From the NCBI GenBank assembly GCA_045119835.1, contig JBGVED010000022.1, positions 27,646 through 51,645 on the forward strand: a stretch of DNA of 24,000 nucleotides, given 5' to 3'. How positions within the stretch are numbered: position 1 is the first letter of the stretch; each line of letters opens with the position of its first letter. This DNA comes from Bacilli bacterium (GTDB lineage Bacteria; Bacillota_I; Bacilli_A; RFN20; DUOF01). This document shows, piece after piece, positions 4,975 through 23,745 of this stretch. A program made the translations under genes and the position numbers. A model generated the notes under the pieces. The model did no database searches. It was not told the origin of the DNA and saw only the letters and a list, made by a program, of their open reading frames with translations.

Positions 4975-4998
4975 AATTTTGCCTCCTTCTTTTATTTA

Positions 4999-5413: not shown

Positions 5414-5415
5414 AA

Positions 5416-9001: not shown

Positions 9002-9043
9002 ACCCATGTTCATCATAATTAAATTTTTATGATGAACATGGGT
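9002..9043. promoter_or_regulatory. Perfect 17-bp inverted repeat ACCCATGTTCATCATAA(8 nt)TTATGATGAACATGGGT
   Basis: Read directly. Lies 65-106 bp upstream of the fibre start in the divergent control region. No flanking U-run in either orientation, so operator or activator site is favoured over terminator. Confidence 0.5.
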
Positions 9044-9056: not shown

Positions 9057-9235
9057 ATATTTTATATAGCTTTGTGAAAAAATTAACAATCCTATATAGA
9101 GGATAAAAATTTATATTATTTTATATAGAATTTCACTGGAAAAGTTTTCCTATATAGGAGGTGAAAAATTTGAATTTTTTATTCGGGATTACAGATTATG
9201 GAAGATCTATATATAGAACTAAAATTTTGAATTTT
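9057..9235. repeat. Three tandem ~58-bp AT-rich repeats in the divergent region
   Basis: TTTTATATAG at 9060 and 9119. CCTATATAG at 9091 and 9149, plus CTATATATAG at 9207. AAAAATTT-type tracts at 9104, 9164 and 9220. TTTGAATTTTTTAT at 9169 and 9226. Spacings are 57-59 bp. Confidence 0.55.
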
Positions 9236-9352: not shown

Positions 9353-9411
9353 ACATACTAGCATGATTGGATCAATGGGCAACGTCCCACCACATGCATT
9401 GGAGGTATGTT

Positions 9412-10122
9412 ATGATGAAAACTAAAAGATATGAATGTACAGGTGAAGGTGTAGTGCGCCTTATGAAACAACATAATGTTTCTGAGGTAACACTAATCTC
9501 TAAATACCTATGTCGTTGTATTAAAACTACTACTCGTTCTATTGAGTACTTCGATTTAAGAAGTTTTTCTTGGTACGATGTAACTGTTAATATATATAGC
9601 AATGGGTATACTGAGATACATGTATTCAACAACTTAGATACTAAGTGTGAAATATGTGCTCCTGCTGTACAATACTGTGATGAATTACCTAAACCTATAG
9701 GGTTCGATAATAGATACTACTTCCATGGAACTATGGCTTATAACCATTGTACTTTAGAAGAGGGTGTACAAAGAATCCTAGATGTTAAGGATAACTCATC
9801 ATGGCAAATATGCTGCTCTACAAGACACCTTGGACCATGTGGAATCATAGTAAAAGGTGATGTCATAGCAGTGTCTAATATCGATCTATGCTCTGATATA
9901 GACGATAATGGACGCAGATACTATGATGCACGTCATTGGAGAGCAAATAGTATGGTCTATAGTCTTAAAGACATAGACAATACTAAGTGGCATCACAACG
10001 AAATAATTGTGAAAGACCACTATATAGCAGCTCTATGGGTGAGTAGAGACGCACCTGTAGCAGTTATTACAGCTATCGAAGATTTGGCTAAAAAGCTAAA
10101 TCTAAGATGGATGTATGTGTAA
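9412..10122 (+). CDS. Paralog-family protein 1 (236 aa), FHG...CST[RK]...NEII motif set (possible ART fold)
   Basis: ORF-track ORF trimmed to the ATG at 9412 (GGAGG 6 nt upstream). The C-terminal ~130 aa align by eye with the 11542..12039 protein: YFHGT / ICCSTRHLGPCGIIVKGDVIAVSNIDLCSDIDDNGRRYYD / NEIIVKD...LAKKLNL. Confidence 0.8.
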   Translation: MMKTKRYECTGEGVVRLMKQHNVSEVTLISKYLCRCIKTTTRSIEYFDLRSFSWYDVTVNIYSNGYTEIHVFNNLDTKCEICAPAVQYCDELPKPIGFDNRYYFHGTMAYNHCTLEEGVQRILDVKDNSSWQICCSTRHLGPCGIIVKGDVIAVSNIDLCSDIDDNGRRYYDARHWRANSMVYSLKDIDNTKWHHNEIIVKDHYIAALWVSRDAPVAVITAIEDLAKKLNLRWMYV

Positions 10123-10627
10123 TCCGTCAGTCCTGAGTAAGACTATAAACTACTCCCCTATATATATAGGGTATGTCTAATGCAGCCACCTATATGGTGC
10201 AGGTCACAAGCCCTGGTAAATGCAGAGTGGACATAGGAGTTAATGCTTCTCCTCTATCAAAAAGCTAACCTAACCAATTTAAAATGAGTCGGGCTGCCAA
10301 GGCCCCTTAAACTTGGCCAGTTGTCAGTACTGATAGTATGAACTGACTGGGTTTTGTTCTCAATTCTTTCCCATCAAAAAAGGAATTGTCTGCCTAATCA
10401 GGACCGACCAAGTCCCTAAACTGGCGGGTGTATAGCATTAGGCTATCCCCTATAACAAATGATAAAGGTGCATGAGATAGCTCTTCGGTTAGGGCTGGCA
10501 CTGTTCTTGGTTAGGTACCAGTACTACTACGATAGGTTGTGCCAGTGCCATACCGTCAATACATAAACCACATTGACATAGGGTTTAATGTGCTTATGTA
10601 TAAAATAAACTATATAGGGGTGTTTAT
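10123..10627 (+). ncRNA. Candidate large (~500 nt) structured non-coding RNA / GC-rich ORF-free island
   Basis: No ORF of 60 aa or more on either strand, and clearly more GC-rich than the flanking genes. Local helices: 10156-10171 (CCCTAT/ATAGGG), 10172-10177/10230-10235, 10294-10320 (CTGCCAAG/CTTGGCCAG with one bulge), 10324-10328/10342-10346 (TCAGT/ACTGA), 10392-10398/10437-10443 (GCCTAAT/ATTAGGC) enclosing GGAC/GTCC, 10496-10503/10543-10550 (TGGCACTG/CAGTGCCA), 10555-10560/10572-10577 (GTCAAT/ATTGAC). Strand inferred from neighbouring genes. Confidence 0.4.
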
Positions 10628-11416
10628 ATGTATAACAAATTAAGATCTGTAATATTATTAGCTTATAAAAAAGAGATATGTAGAAGAGAAATACTAGATT
10701 GTGATGCTAGAGAAGACATAGAAAATGATATAAATGATATCATAGAATCTAGTTTACGCAATTATGTAGATCAAAGTGAACATTTCTCTAGACCTAAACG
10801 ATTAGTATATGACGATACTTGTGCTCCTATTAATGCTTATGGTTATTATATGCATATGATAGATCTAATAACATTAGATGAAAATTTAAGATGTTTTTAT
10901 TCAATGGCTTCTCTTAATTTTCTTGAAACATTAAAAGTAAGCGTTAATACATTCTTACATGAACATCGTCATTGTCATCAATACAAAACTAACATGGATA
11001 TATTAAACCATCCACTATCTAATAAAAATAATCCTGAGTATGTATATGCAAATAGTCCTCTAGAATTAGATGCTAATAAATATGCAGATATGTATGAATT
11101 AGAAGCAGTAGAATGGATTATAGATAGTATAGAATCATGGTTTGATGTTAAATACACTAAAGATATAGTAGAAGCTGATATTAGAGATGATGTAAGAGCA
11201 GCTATAGAAAACTACTATAATAATTTACCTGAAGAAGAAATAGAAAATAGTTTAGCTGAAATGGAAGAAGAATTAGAAGAATACGAAATGACACAAGCTA
11301 TGTTATCTATGCTAGATGATGATGAAGAAGATGAAATAGAAGAAATAACAATAGATCCAGATGAAGACATAAAAGAATGGTTTAGACAATATGAAGAACA
11401 ATTTGGTGAATGGTAG
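10628..11416 (+). CDS. ImmA/IrrE-like (M78-type) HExxH zinc metallopeptidase with a hyper-acidic C-terminal tail (262 aa)
   Basis: AGGGGTG SD lies 5 nt upstream. HEHRH at aa 111-115, followed 31 aa later by E-L-D-A-N-K-Y-A, matching the family's HExxH...ExxANxFA signature. aa ~195-262 are Glu/Asp-rich and end in EEQFGEW. Confidence 0.6.
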   Translation: MYNKLRSVILLAYKKEICRREILDCDAREDIENDINDIIESSLRNYVDQSEHFSRPKRLVYDDTCAPINAYGYYMHMIDLITLDENLRCFYSMASLNFLETLKVSVNTFLHEHRHCHQYKTNMDILNHPLSNKNNPEYVYANSPLELDANKYADMYELEAVEWIIDSIESWFDVKYTKDIVEADIRDDVRAAIENYYNNLPEEEIENSLAEMEEELEEYEMTQAMLSMLDDDEEDEIEEITIDPDEDIKEWFRQYEEQFGEW

Positions 11417-11422
11417 TATATA

Positions 11423-11449
11423 GGGCTCATAATAATATGGGCCCTTTTT
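11423..11449 (+). terminator. Intrinsic terminator
   Basis: GGGCTCATA-ATAA-TATGGGCCC (9 bp with one G.U) followed by TTTTT, 7 nt after the stop. Confidence 0.75.
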
Positions 11450-11460
11450 ATGTTTTAAAT

Positions 11461-11519
11461 AATCTGTCCAGGTGTAGATGCCTGCTGATGAGTCTTTGCA
11501 AATTAAGACGAAACAGATT
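11461..11519 (+). promoter_or_regulatory. Structured 5' leader (three-way-junction-like) of the 11542 gene
   Basis: Closing stem AATCTGT/ACAGATT (11461-11467/11513-11519) encloses CAGG/CCTG (11469-11472/11481-11484) and GTCTT/AAGAC (11492-11496/11505-11509). Confidence 0.4.
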
Positions 11520-11541
11520 AAATATATTGGGAGGTTTTACT

Positions 11542-12039
11542 ATGAGTAAAATATATGTAAAAGATTATTATCAAATGAATAAAGGATTATTTGAAAACTT
11601 TGAAGATAAAAAATTCTTTCATGGGTTTGGCGCATTCTTTGCGTCAAAAACACCATTAGAAAGAAAATTCACAAGATTAATAGAAGATACAAATGAAGAA
11701 TTCGAAATATGTACATCAACTAAAGCTTGCGGTATGAGTGGAGTCATAGTGCAAGGTAGAGTATTATTAGCTGCAAATTCTGATTTATGTTCAGGAATAA
11801 ATGCTAATGGTAGATACTTTGATTCTAAACAATTAGATGAATTAGTATTCGACTTTAATGATTTAGAATTATGGGAGGATGATTGCGAAGAAAATAATGA
11901 AATCATCCTAGATCATGTACAAGTAGTAGGTATATGGTATTGTGAAGATGCTAACAACAATGTTAAAGCTTTATGTAAACGTTTAGCTGAATTATATAAT
12001 CTACCATTAATAAATGCTGGTCTAAGCATATTTAATTAA
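11542..12039 (+). CDS. Paralog-family protein 2 (165 aa), FHG...CTSTK...NEII motif set
   Basis: GGGAGG lies 7 nt upstream of the ATG at 11542. The track's upstream extension from 11410 overlaps the terminator and leader. Alignable with the 9412 protein: FFHGF / ICTSTKACGMSGVIVQGRVLLAANSDLCSGINANGRYFD / NEIILDH...LAELYNL. Confidence 0.8.
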   Translation: MSKIYVKDYYQMNKGLFENFEDKKFFHGFGAFFASKTPLERKFTRLIEDTNEEFEICTSTKACGMSGVIVQGRVLLAANSDLCSGINANGRYFDSKQLDELVFDFNDLELWEDDCEENNEIILDHVQVVGIWYCEDANNNVKALCKRLAELYNLPLINAGLSIFN

Positions 12040-12064
12040 GAGCTCTAATTATTAGGGCTCTTTT
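12038..12064 (+). terminator. Intrinsic terminator overlapping the stop codon
   Basis: AAGAGCTC-TAATTATTA-GGGCTCTT (8 bp with one G.U) followed by TT. Confidence 0.6.
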
Positions 12065-12077
12065 ACATCTTTGTTTA

Positions 12078-12167
12078 ATATTTCTATAGTTTTTTTATTT
12101 TTTTTACTATTTGTTCAAACGAGAGCGCACCTAAGTACTCTCTATTTTTACATATAACTAAAGATAA
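12078..12167 (+). promoter_or_regulatory. Cassette intergenic repeat, copy 1 (promoter-like block)
   Basis: ATTTCTATAGTTTTTTTATTTTTTTTAC...CGAGAGCGCACCT...TTTACATATAACTAAAGATAAA. Shared almost verbatim with 12799-12887 and partly with 13580-13650. CGAGAGCGC core at 12120-12128. Confidence 0.5.
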
Positions 12168-12208
12168 ATAATTAAAATAAAATAATTATTATTACAGGGG
12201 GTTTAGTT

Positions 12209-12769
12209 ATGAGTAAAAAATTAAATAAAATGGTATCTAGTGGTTTAATAATAACAACTGTATTATCAAGTACAACAACTAAAGTTGAAGCAGATGCAGC
12301 AGCAGTATTAGAAATAGCAAATGAAACAGCTATGGTATGTCCATATGTGGCACCACTAGTAGTAACAGGCTCATTAGTAGTGACTGGTATCACTACTATA
12401 ATTGGTATTAAAAATAACAATACAGAAGAATATATCTATCGTAGTTATAGTCATCTTCCAGATCACTGGAAGAAGAATACTTGGGTTGAAAAACTTAACC
12501 CAAACGGTAGGGTGATTCAGCGTAGATATTATGGATCTGATGGTCTTCCAGTTGTTGATTATGATTTAACTCACCATGGTTTCCCAGAGGATCATCCTAA
12601 AAACTTCGGTGGAGCTCATAAACATTTATATAATAATCAAGCTAGAAGAATAAAAGATAGAAGACAAAAGGGTATTGAAATGACTCAAGAAGAATACGAC
12701 AAGTATATAAAAAACTTTAATGAATACGCAGAAAAAATGAAGGTTAGATATATAGAGGATGCTAAATAG
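12209..12769 (+). CDS. Membrane/secreted protein with a His-rich C-terminal motif (186 aa)
   Basis: AGGGGG SD. N-terminal hydrophobic segments (GLIITTVLSS; VAPLVVTGSLVVTGITTIIGI). C-terminal IQRRYYGSDGLPVVDYDLTHHGFPEDHPKNFGGAHKHLY aligns with the 18053..18439 protein. Confidence 0.8.
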   Translation: MSKKLNKMVSSGLIITTVLSSTTTKVEADAAAVLEIANETAMVCPYVAPLVVTGSLVVTGITTIIGIKNNNTEEYIYRSYSHLPDHWKKNTWVEKLNPNGRVIQRRYYGSDGLPVVDYDLTHHGFPEDHPKNFGGAHKHLYNNQARRIKDRRQKGIEMTQEEYDKYIKNFNEYAEKMKVRYIEDAK

Positions 12770-12787
12770 TAGCATCCTTTCTTTGTA
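12754..12787 (+). terminator. Intrinsic terminator with the stop codon in its loop
   Basis: AGGATGCTA-AATAG-TAGCATCCT followed by TTCTTT. The TAG stop (12767-12769) is in the loop. Confidence 0.65.
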
Positions 12788-12798
12788 TTCCTATGATT

Positions 12799-12887
12799 AT
12801 ATTTCTATAGTTTTTTTATTTTTTTTACATGTTGTACACTCGAGAGCGCACCTTATTGTGCTCTCATTTACATATAACTAATGATAA
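12799..12887 (+). promoter_or_regulatory. Cassette intergenic repeat, copy 2
   Basis: Same block as copy 1. CGAGAGCGC at 12841-12849, inside hairpin GAGAGC/GCTCTC. TTTACATATAACTAATGATAAA follows. Confidence 0.5.
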
Positions 12888-12927
12888 AACAATGTAGAGA
12901 ATAATAAATTATAAAGGGGATATAGAT

Positions 12928-13557
12928 ATGAGTAAAAAAGATATAGAAAGATTAAAAAATATGAAGAAACAAAATAATATGAAGAATCAAATGACTAGAC
13001 AAGAAAAAATACAAAGTATAGAAAATTTAGAAAAGAAATTAGCTGACATGTTTAATCAACGTAGTGAAGAAGAATTAAGAAGTATAATAGAAAGACACAA
13101 AAGAAATCAATCAGTTATATATTTTAACGATCATGACAAAGCATTTCAATTTTTAAGAAATAATGATTATAGTGTAGACATATTAGGTACAGTAAGTGAA
13201 GTTAGCAAAATAAGAAATGTAAATGGTGTAAGAACTATGTGTCTAGAAAATATATATATGGTAGCTGTTGAAAATGATAACGTTTGTATATGCGTTGACC
13301 ATATATGGATGAATGAAGAATTATCATGGACAATACTAAAGAATATATTGAAATATCCTGGTAAGGCTGGATATGAAATATTTATCAATAGATTAAAGCC
13401 AATAAAATATACAGAAGAATATTACAACAATGGAGTTGAAAAACACAGATATCAATTAACACAATTAACTAAAAAGAAAAGAATTGCTTGGGTTCAAAAA
13501 GTACAAAGAGCCAATGGAATAACAATGTCAGTAGAAAAAATAGCAGAAATATTATAG
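12928..13557 (+). CDS. Hypothetical protein, basic coiled N-terminus (209 aa)
   Basis: AAGGGGA SD lies 7 nt upstream. No recognised motif. Confidence 0.8.
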   Translation: MSKKDIERLKNMKKQNNMKNQMTRQEKIQSIENLEKKLADMFNQRSEEELRSIIERHKRNQSVIYFNDHDKAFQFLRNNDYSVDILGTVSEVSKIRNVNGVRTMCLENIYMVAVENDNVCICVDHIWMNEELSWTILKNILKYPGKAGYEIFINRLKPIKYTEEYYNNGVEKHRYQLTQLTKKKRIAWVQKVQRANGITMSVEKIAEIL

Positions 13558-13584
13558 GGTCCTTTATTTTAAGGACTCTTTTTC
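13558..13584 (+). terminator. Intrinsic terminator
   Basis: GGTCCTT-TATTTT-AAGGACT (7 bp with one G.U) followed by CTTTTTC. Confidence 0.6.
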
Positions 13585-13650
13585 TATTTTTATAGTTTTT
13601 TTATTTTTTTTACATGGTGCGCACTCGAGAGCGCATCTAATTACATATTC
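13580..13650 (+). promoter_or_regulatory. Cassette intergenic repeat, copy 3 (diverged 3' half)
   Basis: TTTTTATAGTTTTTTTATTTTTTTTACA, then the near-palindrome GCGCACTCGAGAGCGC (CGAGAGCGC at 13626-13634), then TTACATATTCA. Confidence 0.45.
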
Positions 13651-13755
13651 ATGGACCAATCCATGTGAGGTCCTTAAATAACATCATGGAACCCGATCCA
13701 GTTTTTAATGTGGGGGTTGTCTGTCATCCCATCCCAAAAACAGTCAAATACCAAT

Positions 13756-13806
13756 ATGGGGTTAGGGTTGAACCTCGGTCAAAAACCCATGTGTAGTCTT
13801 ACACAT
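13756..13806 (+). promoter_or_regulatory. Conserved two-hairpin leader motif, copy 1 (upstream of the polymerase gene)
   Basis: ATGGGGTTA-GGGTT-GAACCTCGGTCAAA-AACCC-ATGTG-TAGTCTTA-CACAT. Paralogous to 15942-15992, with compensatory changes in both stems. AAGGAGGG SD and the ATG follow within 25 nt. Confidence 0.6.
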
Positions 13807-13828
13807 TAGCTCAAGGAGGGCAAATATC

Positions 13829-15808
13829 ATGTCAATGAATAACAGTAAATTAAGAGGAATATCAAAAGGATTTGGAAGCAACAAATTACTAAGACAAAAG
13901 ATAAACGAAGCTATATATGCAACAAGTGTAGTAGTTAACAAAATAGAATTAAGCTACAACAAAGAAACAAAAGAATATGAAATAACTAAAGACGTTAGAG
14001 GATTAGCAGTATGGAATCCTGTATTTGAAAGATTTGGCTTAAACAGAGACTATCAAAAGATGAATGTAACAGTAGAAGCAGAAGATGACAATGGAAACAC
14101 AACTAAACGTAAAGTTAATATAGACGGTGAATCAGTAGTTATGTGTGACAGCATAATGTTCATCAAATGTGATAACCTTAAACAAATAGCTAAAATGGAC
14201 GAAGAAGGATTCGTATATAATGGTGAATTATATAGAGTACTAGGTGCTTCTCCTTCTCAACAAAAACACGCAGTTAAAGCTTATTTTAAAGTGACTAATG
14301 AATTCCCAACTGAAAAACATGCATTCTTAGCTATGGACGAAGTAAGTGGTTTTGTCTTTACTAAGGGTATATTCAGAAACAAAGTATCTGGACAAAAAGT
14401 TATTGCTGCCAATACAAGATTTGGTAACTATTTAACAGGTATGCAATGCTTAGCTAAAATAGACTTATCAAAAGATTATATAGTTATAGTTGACGGAAGC
14501 ATACCAGGAGCATATGATTTTGACGAACAAACTAGAGAAGAAATGGAAGCTAAAGGACTTGAATTTGACTGCAACATCAATGATGGAGCTTTACACTTTG
14601 GTGTTCCAACAATACAAGAAATAGGACAAAATGTAGGTGTTAGTTTAACAGAAGAAGATGCATTAAGAGTTGCTTTACAATCAAGAATAACTTATATAAC
14701 AGCTAAAGTTATGGGTGACTGTATGCCAGAAAATCAATTATTACAAATGGCAGCACTTCCTAATGCAGTTAAATATGGAAACACAAACGGAAGATTAATG
14801 TTAGTATGCGATACAGATGGAGCAAAAGCTTTAGCAGTTCCTGAATTAGAAAACGGTACAGCTGTATTAGATGTATACGTTATGGCTCAAGCTGCGGTTT
14901 CTGAACCAAAAAGTTCAGGACAACATTTAATCAAATATATGGCAGTTGCTCCAGAAAGAACATTAGAATTCATAAACACAGTGACTACTGAAAATTTAGA
15001 AGCATATGTTATGAATCAAGTAGCAGAAGGTAAAGGTTCTACAGTTGTTGACGATATAAAAAGAGCTCTTGGAGAAGATGCTTTCACAACTAAGATATTT
15101 GTAGAAGGTATATACAGAGATGCTTTCAAGTTTGTACAATCAGCTATAGCTAAAACTAAATTATCTATAGAAGCAGTATATAGCCATATGACATTTGATA
15201 GTACTTTTGTATTAACTAAAGGATTAATCAGAGGTATACTAGACATAACTAATGAAGGTTTTGTACAAGCATTCTGTCCAGACGTATTAAGAAAATATGC
15301 TAAAGAAATAGCTGCTATAGAAAATGATCCAACATTAACAGAAAGAGAAAAAGAAGTAAAATTATTTAACTTACTATCTGGTACAGTTATAAAATACCCT
15401 TCTGCAGGAACAAAAGAATTTGAAATCATAGTTTATCAAACTATGAAACAAATAGAAACATCTATAAAATCTAGAGTTGCAGAACTAGGATTAGACAATA
15501 AGGATGCAGAAGCTATGGTAGATATGTTATTAGCATATTTTGAAAATAGACCATATGGAACAACTACTTTTGCACCATTAAACGCATTAAAAAACAAGTT
15601 GGCGGGAGCCGACTGTGATTTTGATGCTACTATGACAGATATGAGTGAATTAAAACACATCCTTATAGAGAAAAGATTAGAAGAACAAGAAAAACAACCT
15701 GGATTTATGGGGGATTGTACTTTTATCAGCTATAAAGATGTACCAAGAACAGAAGATAAAAATGTTGTTGAAGATACTTTAGGAAACACTGATGATATAG
15801 AATGGTAG
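13829..15808 (+). CDS. Compact two-barrel RNA polymerase, RdRP/QDE-1/YonO-like (659 aa)
   Basis: The CDS itself is near-certain (strong SD, terminator). The function call rests on an ordered motif series: GELYRVLGASPSQQKHAVKAYF (aa 132-153), ANTRFGN (194-200), NDGALHFG (251-258), LQSRITYITAKV (283-294), IKYPSAGTKEFEII (521-534), LAGADCDFD (591-599; DxDxD, DNA 15611-15625). C-terminal tail EDTLGNTDDIEW. Confidence 0.6.
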   Translation: MSMNNSKLRGISKGFGSNKLLRQKINEAIYATSVVVNKIELSYNKETKEYEITKDVRGLAVWNPVFERFGLNRDYQKMNVTVEAEDDNGNTTKRKVNIDGESVVMCDSIMFIKCDNLKQIAKMDEEGFVYNGELYRVLGASPSQQKHAVKAYFKVTNEFPTEKHAFLAMDEVSGFVFTKGIFRNKVSGQKVIAANTRFGNYLTGMQCLAKIDLSKDYIVIVDGSIPGAYDFDEQTREEMEAKGLEFDCNINDGALHFGVPTIQEIGQNVGVSLTEEDALRVALQSRITYITAKVMGDCMPENQLLQMAALPNAVKYGNTNGRLMLVCDTDGAKALAVPELENGTAVLDVYVMAQAAVSEPKSSGQHLIKYMAVAPERTLEFINTVTTENLEAYVMNQVAEGKGSTVVDDIKRALGEDAFTTKIFVEGIYRDAFKFVQSAIAKTKLSIEAVYSHMTFDSTFVLTKGLIRGILDITNEGFVQAFCPDVLRKYAKEIAAIENDPTLTEREKEVKLFNLLSGTVIKYPSAGTKEFEIIVYQTMKQIETSIKSRVAELGLDNKDAEAMVDMLLAYFENRPYGTTTFAPLNALKNKLAGADCDFDATMTDMSELKHILIEKRLEEQEKQPGFMGDCTFISYKDVPRTEDKNVVEDTLGNTDDIEW

Positions 15809-15815
15809 TATTTAT

Positions 15816-15842
15816 GGGCTCAGTTTATGCTGGGCCCTTTTT
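15816..15842 (+). terminator. Intrinsic terminator (paralogous to the one at 11423)
   Basis: GGGCTCAG-TTTATG-CTGGGCCC (8 bp with one G.U) followed by TTTTT. Confidence 0.75.
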
Positions 15843-15843
15843 A

Positions 15844-15870
15844 TATATCTATGTATAATGCATAGATATA
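15844..15870. promoter_or_regulatory. 10-bp inverted repeat with TATAAT in the loop
   Basis: TATATCTATG-TATAATG-CATAGATATA, immediately after the terminator. Candidate -10 box embedded in an operator-like palindrome. Confidence 0.4.
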
Positions 15871-15941
15871 ATGGGAGCTAAATAATCGGCAGCCTCCTCG
15901 TTGGCGCTCCTGGATATCCAACCAATGCCGTAAATACTATT

Positions 15942-15992
15942 ATGGGGTTAGGGCTGAACCTCGGTCAAAAGCCCGTGCATAGTCTTATGCAC
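15942..15992 (+). promoter_or_regulatory. Conserved two-hairpin leader motif, copy 2
   Basis: ATGGGGTTA-GGGCT-GAACCTCGGTCAAA-AGCCC-GTGCA-TAGTCTTA-TGCAC, followed by the AGGAGGG SD and the ATG at 16018. Confidence 0.6.
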
Positions 15993-16017
15993 TTTGCCTA
16001 TAGGAGGGCGTATATAT

Positions 16018-17655
16018 ATGAAATCAACAAACTCATTAAACAATGTAAAAATGAACAGAAGAGATACTTTATTACAAAAAGTATATGACGGAACTATAAG
16101 CTTAAAAGATTTAAGACAAATGGAAAATATAGACATGAACCAATGTCAATATCCAATTAGGGTTTTACAAAAAGTGTTTAACCCTATATCACTTGTAGGG
16201 CCTACTACAACTGTAGTAGGTAACATCATAAATATAGATGTAGATGACCCTCAAGGATTTGAAGAATTCAAAGATGCTCTATTATTACTAAACGATGAAG
16301 GTACTCATACACCATATGGAGAATCAATATGGAAAATAGGTAAAAACGTATTCTGTGGTTATAAATTCTATAATCATAAATTCTACGTTTATTATCAAGT
16401 AACTAATGCTGAAATGGCTGAAATCGAAAGAAAAATAAAAGGTATGAGAAGAAGCGAAATGACAGTGGAAGATGCTAAACAATTACAAAAAGATTTAGAC
16501 TCTGTACTTCGTGGATGGCAAGAATCTAGTATTGACGTTCACAAAGATGAAAAGAAATCATTCTCATATGATTTCAGACACTTCTTTAAGAAAGTAGATG
16601 TAGTGTCTAACTATTGTAAAACACATGCCGATAAAATAGAAATGAATACAAAAGAAATGTTTAAAGACCATAAGAAAGTTGATTCTAAAGAATTCAAAAT
16701 AACATTACCAAGCGATAATCCATTAGGTGACGATGTAGTATGTAAAGACTTAATAGGTAGAGTAACAGAAGAAATAAGAAAAGCTGCTGAAACATTCTTT
16801 AACGGCGACTTAAAAGATATATATGCAATGAGTAATATGGATGCTTTCTTACCATTTGTAGGTTATGCTCAAGCTAATCCAGAATTAGCATTATTCATAA
16901 AAGATATATATCAAATATGCTACAACGCTATAGGAAAAGAAACAATAGAAAAAGAACAATATGCTTTACTAAGAAATGTTGTATATTCTAAAGCTTTAGA
17001 TCTAGGTGTTGAATTCCAAGATGTAGTTAAAGTAGCTATAGACTGTGCAATGGTATCTGTTAAAGAAACTAAAGAAGGTATAGAAGTTACAAACTCTGAC
17101 GTTAACAGATTTAAACTATATCCAATAGTTAATATGTTTGGTAAAGAGTTTAAAGTAGCTATGACTAACCAACCTTATATGGAGACAATAGCAACAGAAG
17201 ATGATTTCTTAGTATTTGACAGATTTATAAAAGATAACGAAGAAATAGAATTCGTTAATGGTAAATCAACTGATGATAAATTAGTTATGATAAACGATTT
17301 CACAGGAACAGCTGTAGAATGTAATGGTGTATTAGTAGCTGAAACTAATGTTTATGCATTTGAAGAAGTAAAAGCTATGATAGTATTCAAAACATTCGAC
17401 GCAAAAGCAACTCCAAAACAAGCTATATATGATAAAACTGGTGCTTTATTAGACAGCTTAATTGAAGAAAACAATTTTGCAGGTATGAGAGTAACAGGTA
17501 AAAATAACAATGGTTTAAGAAACAACACTAACTTAATAGGTGTATTTAGAAGTACTTGTGCATTTGTTAAAGATGAAATAGTTGAACCAACAGATATAAT
17601 AGCATATGATCCAAAACCTGCTAGCCAAAAACTATTCTTAATTATCTGTAAATAA
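16018..17655 (+). CDS. Hypothetical 545-aa protein sharing its leader motif with the polymerase gene
   Basis: ORF-track ORF trimmed to the ATG at 16018 (AGGAGGG 9 nt upstream). No motif recognised. Same leader motif as the polymerase gene. Confidence 0.85.
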   Translation: MKSTNSLNNVKMNRRDTLLQKVYDGTISLKDLRQMENIDMNQCQYPIRVLQKVFNPISLVGPTTTVVGNIINIDVDDPQGFEEFKDALLLLNDEGTHTPYGESIWKIGKNVFCGYKFYNHKFYVYYQVTNAEMAEIERKIKGMRRSEMTVEDAKQLQKDLDSVLRGWQESSIDVHKDEKKSFSYDFRHFFKKVDVVSNYCKTHADKIEMNTKEMFKDHKKVDSKEFKITLPSDNPLGDDVVCKDLIGRVTEEIRKAAETFFNGDLKDIYAMSNMDAFLPFVGYAQANPELALFIKDIYQICYNAIGKETIEKEQYALLRNVVYSKALDLGVEFQDVVKVAIDCAMVSVKETKEGIEVTNSDVNRFKLYPIVNMFGKEFKVAMTNQPYMETIATEDDFLVFDRFIKDNEEIEFVNGKSTDDKLVMINDFTGTAVECNGVLVAETNVYAFEEVKAMIVFKTFDAKATPKQAIYDKTGALLDSLIEENNFAGMRVTGKNNNGLRNNTNLIGVFRSTCAFVKDEIVEPTDIIAYDPKPASQKLFLIICK

Positions 17656-17670
17656 TTATACAGAACCAGG

Positions 17671-17705
17671 GAGCATCAACCAGTTTAGGTTGGTGCTCTT
17701 CTATT
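17671..17705 (+). terminator. Intrinsic terminator
   Basis: GAGCATCAACC-AGTTTA-GGTTGGTGCTC (11 bp with one G.U) followed by TTCTATT. Confidence 0.7.
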
Positions 17706-17723
17706 GTGTATAATTATACACAA
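17704..17723. promoter_or_regulatory. Perfect 20-bp palindrome TTGTGTATAATTATACACAA centred on TATAAT
   Basis: Read directly. About 30 nt upstream of the ATG at 17754. Candidate -10 box within an operator. Confidence 0.45.
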
Positions 17724-17753
17724 AATAAATATAATAGAAAGGATTTGGTAATA

Positions 17754-18041
17754 ATGAATTACAAAACATTATTAAAAATATGTACAGAAAGGAAGTATAA
17801 AGATATGACTTATGATGAATTTATAATGGACATAATATGTGGCCATGAATTTATATGTGAATTAGACGGAATTGTGTTCAAAATTTTAAACATAAAAGAA
17901 GGGTTTTATACTATACGTTTAGGTGATAAAAGATACGATATATCAGAAGAAGAAGATATAGAAGAATATACTATATATCATAACATGACATTAAAAGAAT
18001 TAATGAATAAAAATATGATCAAAATAAAAGAAACATATTAG
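17754..18041 (+). CDS. Hypothetical protein (95 aa)
   Basis: ORF-track ORF trimmed to the ATG at 17754 (GAAAGGA about 10 nt upstream). The track's GTG start lies inside the palindrome. Confidence 0.7.
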   Translation: MNYKTLLKICTERKYKDMTYDEFIMDIICGHEFICELDGIVFKILNIKEGFYTIRLGDKRYDISEEEDIEEYTIYHNMTLKELMNKNMIKIKETY

Positions 18042-18052
18042 GAGGAAGACAA

Positions 18053-18439
18053 ATGAATAAATTACTTAATAAGACCATTGCTATATGCAAGGTCTTTTTT
18101 AATGTATTGGATAGCGTAGAAAAACTACCAGAATACGAACCAAAATATGCTGATAAATTAGTATTAAAAATTCATCCAAAGGGACACCACATGCAAATAA
18201 GAAAATATAAGAACAACGGTCGTGCTGAATATGATATAGACTTACACGATCATGATGAAGATAAAGAATATACTCATGGAGGTATTCATATTCATTATTT
18301 TGGATGGAGATATATTAAAAAACTTAATGAAAATAAATATGTAAGGTTAACTGGAAGAAATTTAACAGATGAAGAATATGAATTTTTACAAAATATAGAC
18401 TATAGAAATTTAATACAAATACAAGTAAGATATGAATAA
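18053..18439 (+). CDS. His-rich-motif protein (128 aa), paralogous domain to 12209..12769
   Basis: AGGAGG lies 7 nt upstream. MQIRKYKNNGRAEYDIDLHDHDEDKEYTHGGIHIHYF aligns with IQRRYYGSDGLPVVDYDLTHHGFPEDHPKNFGGAHKHLY. Confidence 0.8.
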   Translation: MNKLLNKTIAICKVFFNVLDSVEKLPEYEPKYADKLVLKIHPKGHHMQIRKYKNNGRAEYDIDLHDHDEDKEYTHGGIHIHYFGWRYIKKLNENKYVRLTGRNLTDEEYEFLQNIDYRNLIQIQVRYE

Positions 18440-18488
18440 AAAAATTATGGGTTATGCTTTATCCCTGAAAAGCTAGAAAGGATATACT

Positions 18489-19211
18489 ATGAAAACTACT
18501 ATAATGCAAATAATAAAATCAAACGAAAGATACAATGTTATACCAAAACTATATGAAATATTAACTGATAAATATGGCAAATTAACAATTGCTGGTGGAG
18601 CAATTATTGATTGCTTCTATGACAAACCATTTTATGATGTTGATTGTTTTATTAACATCAAAGATTTAAAACCAGAATGGAAACAAAAACTACACATAAG
18701 AAAAGATACTCATGTACTTGATGTATTAAGAGACAATATAGATGGCTTTGACATTGACATAGTTGTAATAGACTATTCAGTAGCAAAACACATCCGTCGT
18801 TTTGACCAACGCTTCAAGCAAGCTTGGTATGATGACAAAGGTCTTCACATGACTAAAGGAGCAGCAAAAGATATAACTGACAATAAAGTAAGAGTAGGTG
18901 TTTTAAATGGCCCTGCTATATACTTTAGAGTAATCCGTTCAGCTAGAAAATATGGTATGCATCTTGATGATACAGACATGTGGCTAATGGAAAACTTTAT
19001 GTCTTGCCTAGATAAATTAAGACTACCTAAGAAATATCAACACATGAAAAGAGAATTCTTACCTTATAAGAATCCTGACAAATTACTAGGAGAAATAGTA
19101 TATAAATACTCACAAAACTACTGGAATACTAAATTATTATACGCACCAAGCTGGACAACATTAAAATTATTCTTATTACCAGCAATAATAAAACACAACA
19201 GAAATAAATAG
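18489..19211 (+). CDS. Pol-beta-superfamily nucleotidyltransferase (CCA-adding/poly(A)-polymerase-like head), 240 aa
   Basis: IAGGAIIDCFYDKPFYDVDCFI fits hG[GS]-x(9-13)-Dh[DE]h. A further acidic strand is FDIDIVVID. RRFDQRF is reminiscent of the RRDFT motif of class II CCA-adding enzymes. Confidence 0.55.
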   Translation: MKTTIMQIIKSNERYNVIPKLYEILTDKYGKLTIAGGAIIDCFYDKPFYDVDCFINIKDLKPEWKQKLHIRKDTHVLDVLRDNIDGFDIDIVVIDYSVAKHIRRFDQRFKQAWYDDKGLHMTKGAAKDITDNKVRVGVLNGPAIYFRVIRSARKYGMHLDDTDMWLMENFMSCLDKLRLPKKYQHMKREFLPYKNPDKLLGEIVYKYSQNYWNTKLLYAPSWTTLKLFLLPAIIKHNRNK

Positions 19212-19220
19212 GTAGAGAAC

Positions 19221-19262
19221 ATACCCATCAGTATATCTGCAGTATATTGGTGGGTATTTCTG
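19221..19262 (+). terminator. Intrinsic terminator, 15-bp stem
   Basis: ATACCCATCAGTATA-TCTGCAG-TATATTGGTGGGTAT. Two G.U pairs form only in the plus-sense RNA. Followed by TTCTGTGT. Confidence 0.6.
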
Positions 19263-19318
19263 TGTCTATTTATAGGCACAAATAAAATAGTCCTTGAGAC
19301 TTTAAACTGGAGGAATAC

Positions 19319-19993
19319 ATGAAAAAATTATTTATGAGAACTTTAAAAATAACATCTTCTATGATTATATTCACTGTAGCATTTTTTTGTTTTTCAGTAT
19401 GTTGTTGTTGTATAAGTGTGATAACAGACGATACACCAGAACCTATTCAAGAAACAACAAATTATGATGAAGAATTAGCTGAAATAAAAGAACAATATGA
19501 GCAACAAATAGCTGAATTAAATAATACTATAGAAACAAAAGATGAAGAAATAAATAATTTAAAACAACAAATGGACGAACAAAATGAAATAATATTTGAC
19601 AAACAAGAAGAAATATATGAATTAGAAAATCAATTAGAAACAACTAATAATAACTATTATATTTCTCATGATGAATATATAGCTGGAAACGACAGTGATA
19701 ATGATGGAGATAATCAATATGATAATGAATATGCTGATCCTGACAGAATATATATAGACGAAAACGGCAACATCATTTATGACGATCATAATAATTATAA
19801 TTATCCATCTTATGATGTAGACGATAATGAATCTTCAAATTATGGAGATTATTATATTGCAAGAGGAAATAGTTATTATCATAATAGTCCAAACTGCAAA
19901 TATTTACAAGGAGCAGATACAGACAGAGTGACTGAAGAAGAGGCTATATCAAATGGCAAACATGAATGCAACTGCGTTAAATATGGTTATTAA
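19319..19993 (+). CDS. Membrane-anchored coiled-coil protein with a C-terminal YH..C...CxC zinc-ribbon-like motif (224 aa)
   Basis: N-terminal TM segment with a CCCC run (IIFTVAFFCFSVCCCCISV), a coiled coil, an Asp/Asn/Tyr-rich low-complexity region, and a C-terminus YYHNSPNCKYL...EEEAISNGKHECNCV. Confidence 0.8.
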   Translation: MKKLFMRTLKITSSMIIFTVAFFCFSVCCCCISVITDDTPEPIQETTNYDEELAEIKEQYEQQIAELNNTIETKDEEINNLKQQMDEQNEIIFDKQEEIYELENQLETTNNNYYISHDEYIAGNDSDNDGDNQYDNEYADPDRIYIDENGNIIYDDHNNYNYPSYDVDDNESSNYGDYYIARGNSYYHNSPNCKYLQGADTDRVTEEEAISNGKHECNCVKYGY

Positions 19994-20053
19994 AATAAAT
20001 TATTAATTTAAAAAAATATATGGGTGGCGACCGGCGCTAGAAGGAGATTTACC

Positions 20054-21133
20054 ATGAAAAAATATGAATTAGAAATGCAAATACAAAAACAAATGGAAGA
20101 ATTACAAAATAAAGAAACTGAATTACAAAATCAAAAAACTGAAGATAGAAAAACAGTAGAACAATTATGTAGCGAATGGAATTGGACATTATCAGATAAA
20201 GAAGCAACAATAGTTAAAGAAGTAGTAGTAGACAATACAGATACAGCAACAATAGAAATGCTTAGAGAAACAATAAGACAAATGAATCAAACAATAAATG
20301 ATATGAATAAAGAACAAGATGAACTATACAAATTATATTTAGAAGAACAAAGAGAAAAAGAAATATGGGCTGCTGCACATGCCGAACTAAAAGAAGTATA
20401 TGAACAACAAATGATAGATATGACATCTGAGTTCGAATTACAATTAGATGAATTAAATAAAAAATACTCTGCATTAGACAGTGAAAATGAACAATTAGAT
20501 AGAGAGATCCATGTATTAACAGGGCAAGTTGCAGGGTATGAAGCACAATTAACTAACAAGGATATAAAAATAGAATCATTAGAAAAACAAATAGCAGATG
20601 CTAAAGAAGATAAAGTAAGAGCTGAAATAATAAAAACAAAAAGTGGAGCAACAATAGAAGTAGTTGACGATCCTGATTATAATGACGTACCAGAAGAAAA
20701 ACCTGTAACTAATAATAAACCAATGAATAATCCAATAAGCTTAACTTATACTTCTTTACACGTAACTCATGATGCAATAAAAGCAATAGCACACGATAAA
20801 GCTAATGGTGTAACATTCCATTTCGTATGGAAAGCTGGACAAGAAAAACTTCCATGTTTTAGTGCAACAGGAGCTAGAGGAACTTGGAGCAGAATGAATG
20901 GTGCAGGTATGTATCGTTATGGTAAACAAATAGTTGAAGATTTCAAACAACTAGCAGAAGAAAAAATAATAAGCAAAACTAAAGATGGCAAAGTAAAAAC
21001 AACTAAAGCTAATAAACCAAACAAACCTGAAGATAAACCTGTAGTTAAAGTAACAAAAGAAGTTGCAGTAGAAACTAATGATGATCCACTTGGAAACACT
21101 GATGATATGGAGTTTGACTGCTATGACTGCTAG
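20054..21133 (+). CDS. Coiled-coil protein with the shared acidic-aromatic C-terminal peptide (359 aa)
   Basis: ORF-track ORF trimmed to the ATG at 20054 (AAGGAG 7 nt upstream). Long coiled coil, a basic Lys/Pro linker, and C-terminus NDDPLGNTDDMEFDCYDC. Confidence 0.8.
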   Translation: MKKYELEMQIQKQMEELQNKETELQNQKTEDRKTVEQLCSEWNWTLSDKEATIVKEVVVDNTDTATIEMLRETIRQMNQTINDMNKEQDELYKLYLEEQREKEIWAAAHAELKEVYEQQMIDMTSEFELQLDELNKKYSALDSENEQLDREIHVLTGQVAGYEAQLTNKDIKIESLEKQIADAKEDKVRAEIIKTKSGATIEVVDDPDYNDVPEEKPVTNNKPMNNPISLTYTSLHVTHDAIKAIAHDKANGVTFHFVWKAGQEKLPCFSATGARGTWSRMNGAGMYRYGKQIVEDFKQLAEEKIISKTKDGKVKTTKANKPNKPEDKPVVKVTKEVAVETNDDPLGNTDDMEFDCYDC

Positions 21134-21770
21134 GGAGGCAGGGGCACATACTTTCACACGAGAGCGCCAAAATTTCCCCCCTTCGGGGGAGATGGCTCCA
21201 CCCTTCGGGCTCGCCCCTCACGGGTCAGGCTCCGCTCCGCTACGCGGAACCTTCGGTTCCACGTGCTCCGCTCCGCAAAAGACAAAACCCAGCTCCGCTA
21301 CGCTGCGCGAAACCTTCGGTTTCACTCAGCTTCGCTCCGCAAAAGACAAAAGCATCGCTCACTACGTTCGCTCACACAAAGGCGTTTGTAATGAGTGTGT
21401 GCTCGCATGCGCTCGCACAAAAGACAAAAACCACAAAAGACAAAGCCTTGCACAAAGGCGTGCTTTATGGTGTTACGCCCACATGTACTGCCCCCTTCGG
21501 GGCCAGTGCCATGGGGCTAACGCTGCACAGGGCACTCAAACAACGAGTGCCTTGCACAAAGGCGTGTTTTATGATAGAGCATGCTCACTGCGTTCGCACA
21601 AAAGCGTTCGTAGTGCGTCTAGCGCGCTTGCGCTTGCACAAAGGCGTGTTCTATGGAAATACGTCTTGCTTATGCAGTCAGTATGTATGGCATTAACGAG
21701 TGCCATAACTGGTCGTGTATACGACATTGACGAGCGCCACACAAAGGCGTGATTTATGATTTTAAAAAAA
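21134..21770 (+). other. GC-rich repeat- and hairpin-dense non-coding island (structured RNA array, promoter/terminator array or replication origin)
   Basis: CACAAAGGCGTG at 21451, 21555, 21637 and 21740 (plus CACAAAGGCGTT at 21375), each followed by NTT(T/C)TATG(G/A). AAAAGACAAA at 21277, 21341, 21419 and 21435. CCTTCGG-centred hairpins at 21177-21189, 21246-21260, 21309-21323 and 21487-21507. Further hairpins at 21686-21707 and 21712-21725. CGAGAGCGC core at 21159-21167. Ends in an A/T tract (21755-21775). Confidence 0.5.
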
Positions 21771-21781
21771 ATTTATTAGGT

Positions 21782-21801
21782 TGTAGGTCGTCGTGCCTAC
21801 A
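21782..21801 (+). promoter_or_regulatory. TCGTCGTG-loop hairpin, copy 1 (leader of the 21820 gene)
   Basis: TGTAGG-TCGTCGTG-CCTACA, preceded by TTAGGT and followed by GGAAATAGGGGT (SD) and the ATG. Confidence 0.55.
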
Positions 21802-21819
21802 GGAAATAGGGGTATAACC

Positions 21820-22497
21820 ATGAAAAATATAGTATTAGTAGCAATGAACAATGTAAGTGTAGCAGTAGTAGCTAATAAAGGACAAAATCAATATAAAGCA
21901 GTTCAAGCTAACAACAGCAAAATAGCATTATTAACTAACTTAAAAACAGTATTATCAGGAATACCAACTAATGATGATTTATCAGCAGAAACAAGACAAA
22001 TTATAATAGGAAGCAAATCTCCAATAATCGGTTTAGTAACAGGTACTTGGAGAGAATATATAAAAACAGGTAAAAACGCTAAAGGCGTAGAAATAGCAGA
22101 AGAAGAATTAGCATTATGGAAACAAGTAGCAGAATTATATGCTAACCGTTGCTTTAATGTTAAATTTACTAGCGACCAATATATAGGCAAAAACGATAAA
22201 GCTACAAAAGACTTAATCAACGTATCTTGGGAATTAGTTAAACAAGAAGTTAGAAAAGCTAATGATATGGCTCAACCAACTCAACCTAAAGTTGCTCAAT
22301 CAGCTCCAGCAGTTAATCCAGTTGTAGCTAAATTACAAGAGCTTATGACTAAAGCATTAGATGAAGGTGACTTCGAAGCTTATGATAAATTAGAAGAAAG
22401 ATTAAACAAATTACAACCAGCTAAAGAAGTTGCAGAAGAACCAGTTAATAATGATCCACTAGAAGGTGCAGAAGAAATGGAATTTGACGCTGAATAA
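21820..22497 (+). CDS. 225-aa protein with an acidic-aromatic C-terminal tail (speculative SSB-like or hub-binding role)
   Basis: ORF-track ORF trimmed to the ATG at 21820 (AGGGG 7 nt upstream). C-terminus NNDPLEGAEEMEFDAE. No fold recognisable by eye. Confidence 0.75.
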   Translation: MKNIVLVAMNNVSVAVVANKGQNQYKAVQANNSKIALLTNLKTVLSGIPTNDDLSAETRQIIIGSKSPIIGLVTGTWREYIKTGKNAKGVEIAEEELALWKQVAELYANRCFNVKFTSDQYIGKNDKATKDLINVSWELVKQEVRKANDMAQPTQPKVAQSAPAVNPVVAKLQELMTKALDEGDFEAYDKLEERLNKLQPAKEVAEEPVNNDPLEGAEEMEFDAE

Positions 22498-22515
22498 TTT
22501 CTAGTAAATTGGCTC

Positions 22516-22549
22516 TTGTGAGTTCGGCCGTAAACTGAAACTCTCACAA
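22516..22549 (+). terminator. Weak hairpin after the 21820 gene
   Basis: TTGTGAG(20-nt loop containing CGGCCG)CTCACAA, followed by an A-rich rather than U-rich tract. Low-confidence terminator. Confidence 0.3.
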
Positions 22550-22564
22550 AATAATTAATTAGGT

Positions 22565-22584
22565 GATAAGTCGTCGTGCTTATC
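22565..22584 (+). promoter_or_regulatory. TCGTCGTG-loop hairpin, copy 2 (leader of the 22604 gene)
   Basis: GATAAG-TCGTCGTG-CTTATC, preceded by TTAGGT and followed by GGAATCAAGGGTG (SD) and the ATG. Confidence 0.55.
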
Positions 22585-22603
22585 GGAATCAAGGGTGATT
22601 AAT

Positions 22604-23407
22604 ATGATGAATCAAATATGTGGAAACAAATTACAAGTTGAAAGCTTAGTTAATACAGTATTTTCTCAAGTATGTGTATTTGCAGAAGAAGAACAAGTAT
22701 TTGCTAGCTTCGAAACAATAGAAGTTGACGATAATACTGTTATGTTAAAATGGGATACAGATAACTTAACTCCAGAAGCTCAATGCATGCTAAACACAGC
22801 TTTATATTACAGATTCCAAGACAAAACTTTATCAAGTGAATTACAAATAGAACATGCTATAGAAAAACCTCTAGAAAATCACATCAGAATCATGTGTAAC
22901 ATCGACAAATATGAAGAAATCGTTGAAGACTACTGTGTATATAACAACATTCCTCAAGCTCATTTTACAGCTTTAATGTATCCTTTATCATTAACTATGG
23001 CAGTAAATAAAGCAGAAGTTATAATGATAAACTTAACTGATGAACAAATGGCAGTTATAAATCGCCAAGGAAAAACTCAAGTTAAAGCTAATGCAATCCA
23101 TGCAAAAGTTAATAACATTGGTACAGCTTTACACACAACTTCTAAAGTGGCTATGAAAGACGTTGTTAACCCATTAGCAGTTAATACTGCAAAAGTTGGT
23201 GCAACTGTTGTTTCTGGTTTAGCTACAACTGCATTAGACTGTGGTATGGCAGTAGCTAATGAAGTACTAAGAGACGTTGCTAAATTCTCTTTATCAGAAG
23301 TTAAAAAGAGAGATGAAGTACAAACTATGAAATATAGCATAAGAAAAATATTAAACAAAACTAATAAACCAACACAAAAACAACAAGCTAACAACTTCAA
23401 CTTATAG
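22604..23407 (+). CDS. Hypothetical protein (267 aa)
   Basis: ORF-track ORF trimmed to the ATG at 22604 (AAGGGTG SD; the track's GTG start lies inside it). No motif recognised. Confidence 0.8.
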   Translation: MMNQICGNKLQVESLVNTVFSQVCVFAEEEQVFASFETIEVDDNTVMLKWDTDNLTPEAQCMLNTALYYRFQDKTLSSELQIEHAIEKPLENHIRIMCNIDKYEEIVEDYCVYNNIPQAHFTALMYPLSLTMAVNKAEVIMINLTDEQMAVINRQGKTQVKANAIHAKVNNIGTALHTTSKVAMKDVVNPLAVNTAKVGATVVSGLATTALDCGMAVANEVLRDVAKFSLSEVKKRDEVQTMKYSIRKILNKTNKPTQKQQANNFNL

Positions 23408-23414
23408 GATAAAT

Positions 23415-23440
23415 GCAGGGGCCACAAACCCCTGCTTATT
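23415..23440 (+). terminator. Intrinsic terminator
   Basis: GCAGGGG-CCACAAA-CCCCTGC followed by TTATTAA (a weak U-tract). Confidence 0.55.
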
Positions 23441-23520
23441 AACATAAGCACAAAAGCGTTCTTCTTGAATCATTAGCTATGCACAAAAACAACAAATTAA
23501 AATTTATAGGAGGTATCCTT

Positions 23521-23745
23521 ATGAGATTAAATAATGATATGTTACAAGCAATACAAGCTATATTTGACAAAAGAAATGATTACTGGTTCATAGACAAAAC
23601 TAAAGATGTAGATGATGACTACTATGAATTCTGTTTGTCAGCTGAGTCTATCTTAGAAGCTTGGGACATACTAAAGTTTGACAGAGACAGATATGATTAC
23701 GTAGCAGGTCCAGAAGGACACGACGACGATTGGATATTCGAATAA
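23521..23745 (+). CDS. Small acidic protein (74 aa)
   Basis: AGGAGG lies 7 nt upstream of the ATG at 23521. Asp/Glu/Trp/Tyr-rich, ending in GHDDDWIFE. Confidence 0.75.
   Translation: MRLNNDMLQAIQAIFDKRNDYWFIDKTKDVDDDYYEFCLSAESILEAWDILKFDRDRYDYVAGPEGHDDDWIFE

Follow-up and report, generated by a model that had tools for sequence, protein, structure and literature searches.

A C-terminal peptide shared by a predicted phage two-barrel RNA polymerase and two further proteins varies in concert within genomes and may serve as a docking motif

Why do three otherwise unrelated proteins encoded in one stretch of phage-like DNA end in nearly the same acidic peptide? The question is raised by a stretch of 24,000 nucleotides assigned to a Bacilli bacterium (GenBank assembly GCA_045119835.1, contig JBGVED010000022.1, positions 27,646 to 51,645 of the forward strand), which we refer to as the window and which is AT-rich (about 31% GC) and phage-like in gene content. 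A preliminary description of the window had noticed this C-terminal likeness, together with an identical 17-nt stretch in two of the genes, and had proposed that the proteins dock to one common partner in the manner of replisome proteins, with a capsid-targeting or ejection signal as the alternative. When the window was read again, the coordinates of the tails and the 17-nt identity, GGAAACACTGATGATAT at 15782-15798 and 21092-21108, in the genes of the first two proteins below, all proved correct. The three tails are as follows:

15770-15805, plus strand: EDTLGNTDDIEW, the disordered end of a 659-aa polymerase (pol)
21077-21130, plus strand: NDDPLGNTDDMEFDCYDC, the end of a 359-aa coiled-coil protein (cc)
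22447-22494, plus strand: NNDPLEGAEEMEFDAE, the end of a 225-aa protein (p225)

We took the C-terminal 20 residues of each of the 23 credible open reading frames (ORFs) in the window and aligned them locally, all against all. The two top scores were 48 (cc versus p225) and 47 (pol versus cc). Random internal segments, paired 20,000 times, scored 43 at most, and none of 2,000 composition-preserving shuffles of the tails reached 47 or 48. Judged by local alignment, random segment pairs and shuffles, the likeness of the three tails is beyond chance. Two looser variants had been added to the set in the preliminary description, and neither was supported as an instance of the same motif: DDDWIFE, on a 74-aa protein, because it scored only 26 against the cc tail, and EEQFGEW, on a metallopeptidase-like protein, because it is not conserved, members of that family assigned by BLAST ending in LLGM or EYLFD.

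The motif can be written roughly as [DE]-x-L-x-G-x-[DE]-[DE]-hydrophobic-[DE], followed by 0-7 further residues and preceded by a disordered linker. We took an acidic-hydrophobic-acidic run within the last 12 residues as the criterion for its core and searched the homologues of the three proteins. The core was kept in 109 of the 120 best homologues of pol (198 were found at E ≤ 0.001; the 120 examined have 47-93% identity), in 109 of the 120 best of the 121 cc homologues, and in 52 of the 55 p225 homologues; it was present in none of 167 proteins of other families at the same loci. When the upstream L-x-G was added to the pattern, 30 of 399 C-termini in 51 loci fitted it, 29 of the 30 coming from the three tail families; this stricter form has an internal rate of about 1e-4 per residue. 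The motif is restricted to the C-termini of the pol, cc and p225 families, and in the orthologue check that the preliminary description had suggested, the tail was found to be conserved in all three.

We then compared the tails genome by genome. Loci of relatives, denoted by L-numbers, were fetched as neighbourhoods of divergent polymerases; for the window, which look-ups with its own proteins lengthened by only a few kb, as for any relative, about 30 kb of a genome of ~89 kb was sampled. The tails of individual genomes read:

Window: pol TLGNTDDIEW, cc PLGNTDDMEFDCYDC, p225 PLEGAEEMEFDAE, with the cores DDIEW (pol), DDMEF.. (cc) and EEMEF.. (p225)
L003: pol VAGNTDDIEF, cc CGDTDDIDFF, p225 VLGDTSEVDFE
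L005: pol VLEGAEDIEF, cc PMAGAENLDL, p225 PLAGAEDIDC
L006, L007 and L013: ...DDME on pol, cc and p225 alike
L008: pol ENDDIEL, cc EADDIDL, p225 DADDIEL
L036: pol LNSLDM, cc LDGIDM, p225 LDSIEM
L039: pol IADDFEC, cc MWDDFEI, p225 not seen
L054: pol NEEELK (degenerate), cc DPDDLLE, p225 DADDLLE

The mean cross-family tail score within one genome was 30.3. Permutation of the genome labels gave a mean of 20.3 ± 1.2, with 0 of 10,000 permutations reaching 30.3, and tails of the same family compared between genomes also scored only 20.3. These results show concerted evolution of the tails within genomes, at the level of the protein. Drift of each tail on its own from a shared ancestor was set aside because it would not give such likeness within a genome. 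In three relatives (L025, L026 and L029), pol is present twice, each copy paired with the gene of a 545-aa protein (p545) that is described below, and both polymerases carry the tail. The cc tail of L029, VTAWDDIDI, is closer to that of the adjacent polymerase (FTAYDDIDM) than to that of the other polymerase (FSDVEDIDVD).

Does this concert reside in the DNA or in the peptide? Over nine genomes, 121 positions at which two tails share a residue were compared; the same codon was used at 68 of them, against 68.5 expected from codon usage. For the window alone, identical codons were observed at 7 shared residues, with 6.9 expected, and in relatives the same tail residues are encoded by different synonymous codons on the three genes. 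A DNA-level element or recent gene conversion was thereby ruled out. The 17-nt identity in the window exists, but it has no special meaning, since the codons match no more often than codon usage predicts. The lack of any excess codon identity indicates that selection acts on the peptide, and peptide-level selection together with the concerted change within genomes is the mark that co-evolution with one shared binding site leaves.

The proteins that bear on the nature of this site are encoded as follows:

13829-15808, plus strand: pol, predicted 659-aa single-chain two-barrel RNA polymerase, from its AlphaFold2 (AF2) fold, its DxDxD motif and PF05183 in homologues
16018-17655, plus strand: p545, 545-aa protein without a tail, the next gene after pol
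20054-21133, plus strand: cc, 359-aa coiled-coil protein with mosaic middle and C-terminal regions and the second tail
21820-22497, plus strand: p225, 225-aa protein with an N-domain (residues 1-148), a linker, a helical hairpin (167-198), a second linker and the third tail

The AF2 model of pol (mean predicted local distance difference test, pLDDT, 82; predicted template modelling score 0.79) matches QDE-1 and RDR2 over about 650 columns (E 1e-10 to 1e-8) and also gp66 of the crAss-like phage phi14:2 (6vr4, E 5e-5). The motif GAD595-x-D597-F-D599-AT is invariant in 25 sequences with 46-83% identity to the window protein; five of these 25 match PF05183 weakly (best E 8.8e-7), the window protein itself does not, and sequence profiles of the PDB gave no match for pol or p545. 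The model thus places pol with the two-barrel RNA polymerases QDE-1, RDR2 and crAss gp66. A DNA polymerase was rejected, as the fold matches two-barrel RNA polymerases. Residues 640-659, which form the tail, are predicted to be disordered (pLDDT <50). The p545 gene follows pol in every locus where downstream sequence exists, and neither the protein nor its alignment matched Pfam.

In cc, only coiled-coil models of Pfam were matched, both by the window protein and by the alignment, in which a mosaic body is joined to a constant tail; its linker is rich in lysine. The N-domain of p225 was modelled with a pLDDT above 90 (tail <50), and Foldseek matched it to E. coli RNase HI (E 4e-7; target-normalised TM-score, TMt, up to 0.61) and to a phage RNase H (1e-7), so that the model shows an RNase H fold. 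Its only conserved acidic residues are D119, D126 and E143. The catalytic D-E-D-D set is absent from p225: Asn-Asn replaces Asp in the first strand, and the first helix has no conserved Glu. On these residues, p225 is a predicted catalytically dead RNase H-fold protein. It was also considered as an SSB, a protein that binds single-stranded DNA, and rejected, having an RNase HI fold instead of an oligonucleotide/oligosaccharide-binding (OB) fold. The most conserved part of p225 is the helical hairpin (window 22318-22413; NPVVAKLQELMTKALDEGDFxxYDxLEERLNKL). The hairpin is found again at the C-terminal end of P0175, a 345-aa protein that differs in its other parts and has no tail, and is probably a separate interaction or oligomerisation module.

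We propose, at a probability of roughly 60%, that the tail is a short linear docking motif that tethers pol, cc and p225 to one shared partner. The three tails would bind one and the same site on a partner protein that co-evolves with them. This partner would be the transcription machine itself, with p545, encoded directly after pol, as the leading candidate: the pol tail would latch the enzyme to the partner, and cc and p225 would use the same socket, together on an oligomer or in turn, in a scheme resembling that by which T4 gp43, gp55 and gp33 share the gp45 clamp. We infer that there is a single receptor and that the phage encodes it. That the receptor may be p545 or the polymerase complex is much less certain; this is the best candidate among the sampled genes, and at the same time a weak lead and the weakest step of the proposal. 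Of the earlier suggestion, docking to one common partner is strongly supported by the conservation and the within-genome co-variation of the tails. Its replisome framing did not hold up: the carriers are a predicted RNA polymerase, a coiled-coil protein and an RNase H-fold protein, none of them a replication protein, and for this reason a transcription-centred analogy with T4 fits better than the SSB or T7 replisome.

For the receptor, we asked over 12-15 genomes how the pairwise similarity of the combined cc and p225 tails relates to the identity of every conserved family sampled. The identity of p545 tracked tail similarity best (Spearman rho 0.55, Mantel p 0.0005), followed by the core of pol (rho 0.44) and by the tail carriers' own cores (p225, 0.36; cc, 0.23); none of p186 (0.13), p267 (0.12) and p242 (0.04) correlated significantly with tail similarity. 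In partial correlations, p545 retained 0.32 given pol and 0.43 given the cc and p225 cores, and pol retained 0.09 given p545. The 267-aa downstream protein, p267, is unlikely to be the receptor: the window and L005 versions share 97% identity although the tails of the two genomes differ, and its rho was 0.12. Its alignment had no Pfam match.

Several observations weigh against this proposal. The p545 correlation comes from 12-15 related, mosaic genomes in which phylogeny and evolutionary rate are confounded, and p545 may be only a fast, clock-like marker of overall divergence. The divergence test scored families from about 30 of ~89 kb, and better candidates may exist among capsid, portal, clamp, SSB and host proteins. 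The net charge of p545 is about -15, which is unexpected at first sight for the receptor of an acidic peptide. In some genomes, moreover, the pol tail departs from those of cc and p225 (DNSIF versus DDMEF in L055; NEEELK versus DDLLE in L054), and the membership of pol in the tail set therefore looks looser than that of the other two.

Among the closest known systems is that of T4, in which C-terminal motifs of gp43 (the DNA polymerase), gp55 (the late sigma factor) and gp33 (a co-activator) all bind gp45 and are interchangeable (PMC2988020). As in T4, a short hydrophobic and acidic extreme C-terminus follows a divergent flexible linker and is common to a polymerase and otherwise unrelated transcription proteins of one phage. 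Unlike in T4, the carrier here would be the phage's own two-barrel RNA polymerase and not a DNA polymerase or factors of the host enzyme; the sequence pattern is a different one (L-x-G-x-D-D-hydrophobic-E), and no clamp gene was found in the about 30 kb sampled. In T7, gp2.5 and gp4 are different proteins that bind one partner, the T7 DNA polymerase, through tails of the same kind, and in the SSB tip, DDDIPF, the terminal aromatic residue carries a free carboxylate. The present tails are like these in that an acidic run closes with a hydrophobic or aromatic residue and the C-terminus is disordered; they differ in that no carrier is an OB-fold SSB or a helicase, and the system appears to be built around transcription and not replication. 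Tails of relatives end in E, L, M or C (...DDME, ...DDIEL, ...DIDC, ...DDLLE), and two of the three window tails run on past Phe, so that an SSB-type aromatic end with a free carboxylate is not needed. The analogy with SSB- and T7-type tails drawn in the preliminary description was abandoned on both grounds, the missing OB-fold core and the dispensable aromatic end.

With QDE-1/RDR- and YonO-type polymerases, pol has in common the predicted fold and the DxDxD catalytic motif; it is much smaller than they are, its gene is always paired with that of p545, and it carries the candidate docking tail. In the literature, we found no docking tail of this kind for QDE-1, YonO or gp66. What appears to be new here is the occurrence of a known docking format, with another sequence pattern, on a phage two-barrel RNA polymerase and on two new accessory proteins.

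Could the tails be read differently? Their co-variation fits any single receptor, a capsid protein included, and it is conceivable, if unlikely, that the tail is a cargo-loading peptide. It would then be a virion-targeting signal binding the procapsid interior, the scaffold or the portal, and the minimal two-barrel RNA polymerase with its two helpers would be packaged and injected to start transcription. N4 and crAss-like phages package an RNA polymerase in the virion and inject it with their DNA, and a shared C-terminal peptide on unrelated cargo is the signal by which encapsulins load HK97-fold shells, the HK97 protease being a further case of a cargo-loading peptide; the tail peptide is unlike the encapsulin signal, which is rich in glycine and leucine. 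The closest solved phage structure to the pol model, phi14:2 gp66, is a virion-packaged RNA polymerase, and their related folds were therefore counted in favour of packaging, as was the need for the C-terminal part of the N4 virion RNA polymerase in encapsidation (PMC13492108). Sigma-70-like promoters were not enriched upstream of the plus-strand block that carries the tail genes (33 versus 29 ± 5 in shuffled sequence), so that dependence on the host polymerase is not evident; taken by itself, the scan was uninformative. Unlike the N4 and crAss-like virion polymerases, pol is a small, free-standing enzyme of a compact 659 aa and not part of a giant virion protein, and the three tail genes lie in a block of small non-structural genes on the strand opposite to the tail-fibre genes. 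Nor does pol, divergent from the tail-fibre block, sit among structural or late genes as the polymerases of N4 and crAss-like phages do. In the three relatives with two pol-p545 pairs, both polymerases are tailed; to our knowledge, phages with two polymerases package only one of them. The tail variants also track p545, a non-structural protein, in a comparison of families that included no capsid gene.

Docking to a separate DNA-bound hub, namely a phage or host sliding clamp or SSB, which would couple transcription to replication or to single-stranded templates, seems improbable to us. Its models would be the T4 gp45 'toolbelt' and the gp2.5 and gp4 tails of T7. Such docking would agree with the format of the T4 C-termini, hydrophobic and acidic on flexible linkers, on a polymerase and on transcription factors (PMC2988020). 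The co-variation within genomes would fit a hub that the phage encodes. QDE-1 works with RPA, and the N4 virion RNA polymerase with SSB, which lends such coupling some plausibility. Against it, neither the window nor the about 30 kb of any relative yielded a gene for a clamp, an SSB or a DNA polymerase, the tail is by inspection unlike the bacterial clamp-binding consensus QL[SD]LF and, unlike the SSB tip, can do without a terminal aromatic residue with a free carboxylate, and its carriers are not replication proteins. We regard it as very improbable that the tail has no specific partner and is a generic acidic, DNA-mimicking end that folds back on the nucleic-acid-binding surface of its own protein, or a tag for degradation by a host protease. 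SSB, gp2.5 and gp32 are known to have acidic tails that fold back onto the protein itself, and nucleic-acid binding is plausible, as a prediction, for the polymerase, the RNase H fold and the lysine-rich linker of cc. Other early proteins of these phages are also acidic-aromatic at the end (p242, for example, with ...EDWMF). Charge does not explain a position-specific L-x-G followed by acid-acid-hydrophobic-acid, and a generic tail does not explain an exact variant that the three proteins of a genome have in common and that is exchanged for another from genome to genome; of a host degron, one would expect the same form throughout related phages. In the AF2 models of pol and p225, no tail docks onto its own protein (pLDDT <50).

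If the tail does dock the three proteins to one partner, a device that wires the replication and transcription machines of T4 and T7, the shared C-terminal docking peptide, would here be found on a minimal QDE-1/crAss-type RNA polymerase. The three tails would offer a ready handle for finding the partners of this polymerase, and the natural variants (DDIEW, DDME, DDIEL, DDLLE and others) a built-in specificity-swap experiment. Were the receptor p545, the system would define the subunit architecture and the factor-exchange mechanism of a new minimal transcription machine. With the capsid as receptor, the tail would serve as a packaging tag that can be transferred, analogous to encapsulin cargo peptides and the first short capsid-targeting signal of this kind for an RNA polymerase of a phage; foreign proteins could be packaged with its help.

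The genes of the window fall into two blocks, with a metallopeptidase-like gene in the second:

883-8937, minus strand: block encoding tail-fibre and pre-neck-appendage-like proteins
9394-23745, plus strand: block of proteins mostly without assigned function, carrying all three tail genes
10628-11416, within the plus-strand block: metallopeptidase-like 262-aa protein; motif HEHRH (HExxH-like), C-terminal region long and acidic

Scans of Pfam and PHROGs gave no match for most window proteins. The 262-aa protein is among those without a match in either and is called metallopeptidase-like from its HEHRH motif alone. The divergent intergenic region between the tail-fibre genes and the plus-strand block contains a hairpin with a 17-bp stem and repeated palindromic CCTATATAGG motifs (9002-9043 and 9091-9158); a further copy, CTATATAGG, lies at 10610-10618, just 5' of the metallopeptidase-like gene.

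Contigs of relatives in this lineage measure 88.9 kb (behind L008) and 90.2 kb (behind L007), and others 176.6 and 269.0 kb; the set lies behind L003, L007, L008 and P0253. This suggests a genome of about 89 kb, the 176.6- and 269.0-kb contigs resembling two and three assembled copies of it. All homologues of the three tail proteins are metagenomic, mostly from the gut, and the lineage has 106 representatives among 1.84 billion protein clusters. We found no relative by tblastn with the three window proteins against the INPHARED phage records or in scans of IMG/VR viral contigs, and no description of the lineage or of the tail motif in the literature. Its only match to a genome bin is a 6-kb contig in a metagenome-assembled genome (MAG) of a faecal Bacilli, and one homologue carries the label of a Clostridia MAG. 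The lineage is rare and undescribed, without a cultured member.

Further features of these loci concern tails of another type, leaders and RNA elements. The p242 family, a paralogue of p209a (window 9394-10122 and 11541-12039), has in relatives a different acidic-aromatic ending (...EDWMF or ...DEDWF) that the window copy lacks. The ending ...EDWMF does not have the L-x-G...acid-acid-hydrophobic-acid pattern, and judged by its residues it represents another, distinct type of acidic tail carried by these phages. The relatives of the family are encoded at the following positions:

L003, 7684-8460: p242-family relative
L005, 1586-2356: p242-family relative
L055, 3342-4118: p242-family relative
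L020, 450-1322: p242-family relative

Pairs of genes in the window share conserved, structured upstream leaders, which could act as promoters of the phage, as processing sites or as translational operators:

13740-13828 and 15935-16017: leader shared by pol and p545, ATGGGGTTAGGGYTGAACCTCGGTCAAAA...
12110-12208 and 12830-12927: leader shared by p186 and p209b, CGAGAGCGCACCT...TTTACATATAACTAA
21783-21800 and 22566-22585: leader shared by p225 and p267, a hairpin with the loop GTCGTCGTGC

The spacer between cc and p225 (21134-21819) has 46% GC, against about 30% elsewhere, spans about 630-690 nt and contains no credible ORF; a GC-rich spacer occupies the same position in L003, L005, L010, L049, L055 and others. 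A 31-nt repeat (CTTGCACAAAGGCGTG..TATG) occurs five times in the spacer, alongside several UUCG-type hairpins, and the spacer folds far better than shuffled sequence (z = -8.3). Its sequence is conserved in relatives with flanking proteins of only 30-85% identity, and within its first 140 nt, 8 of 33 predicted pairs show compensatory changes. Rfam had no match to it. The spacer is probably a new structured RNA, or alternatively, and possibly, a replication origin with iterons. A second RNA element lies in the spacer that separates the metallopeptidase-like gene from the gene following it: at 11461-11519 on the plus strand, Rfam matched a type III hammerhead ribozyme (RF00008; 49.2 bits, gathering score 48.5; E 3.3e-8), and the plus-strand transcript may be self-cleaved at this site.

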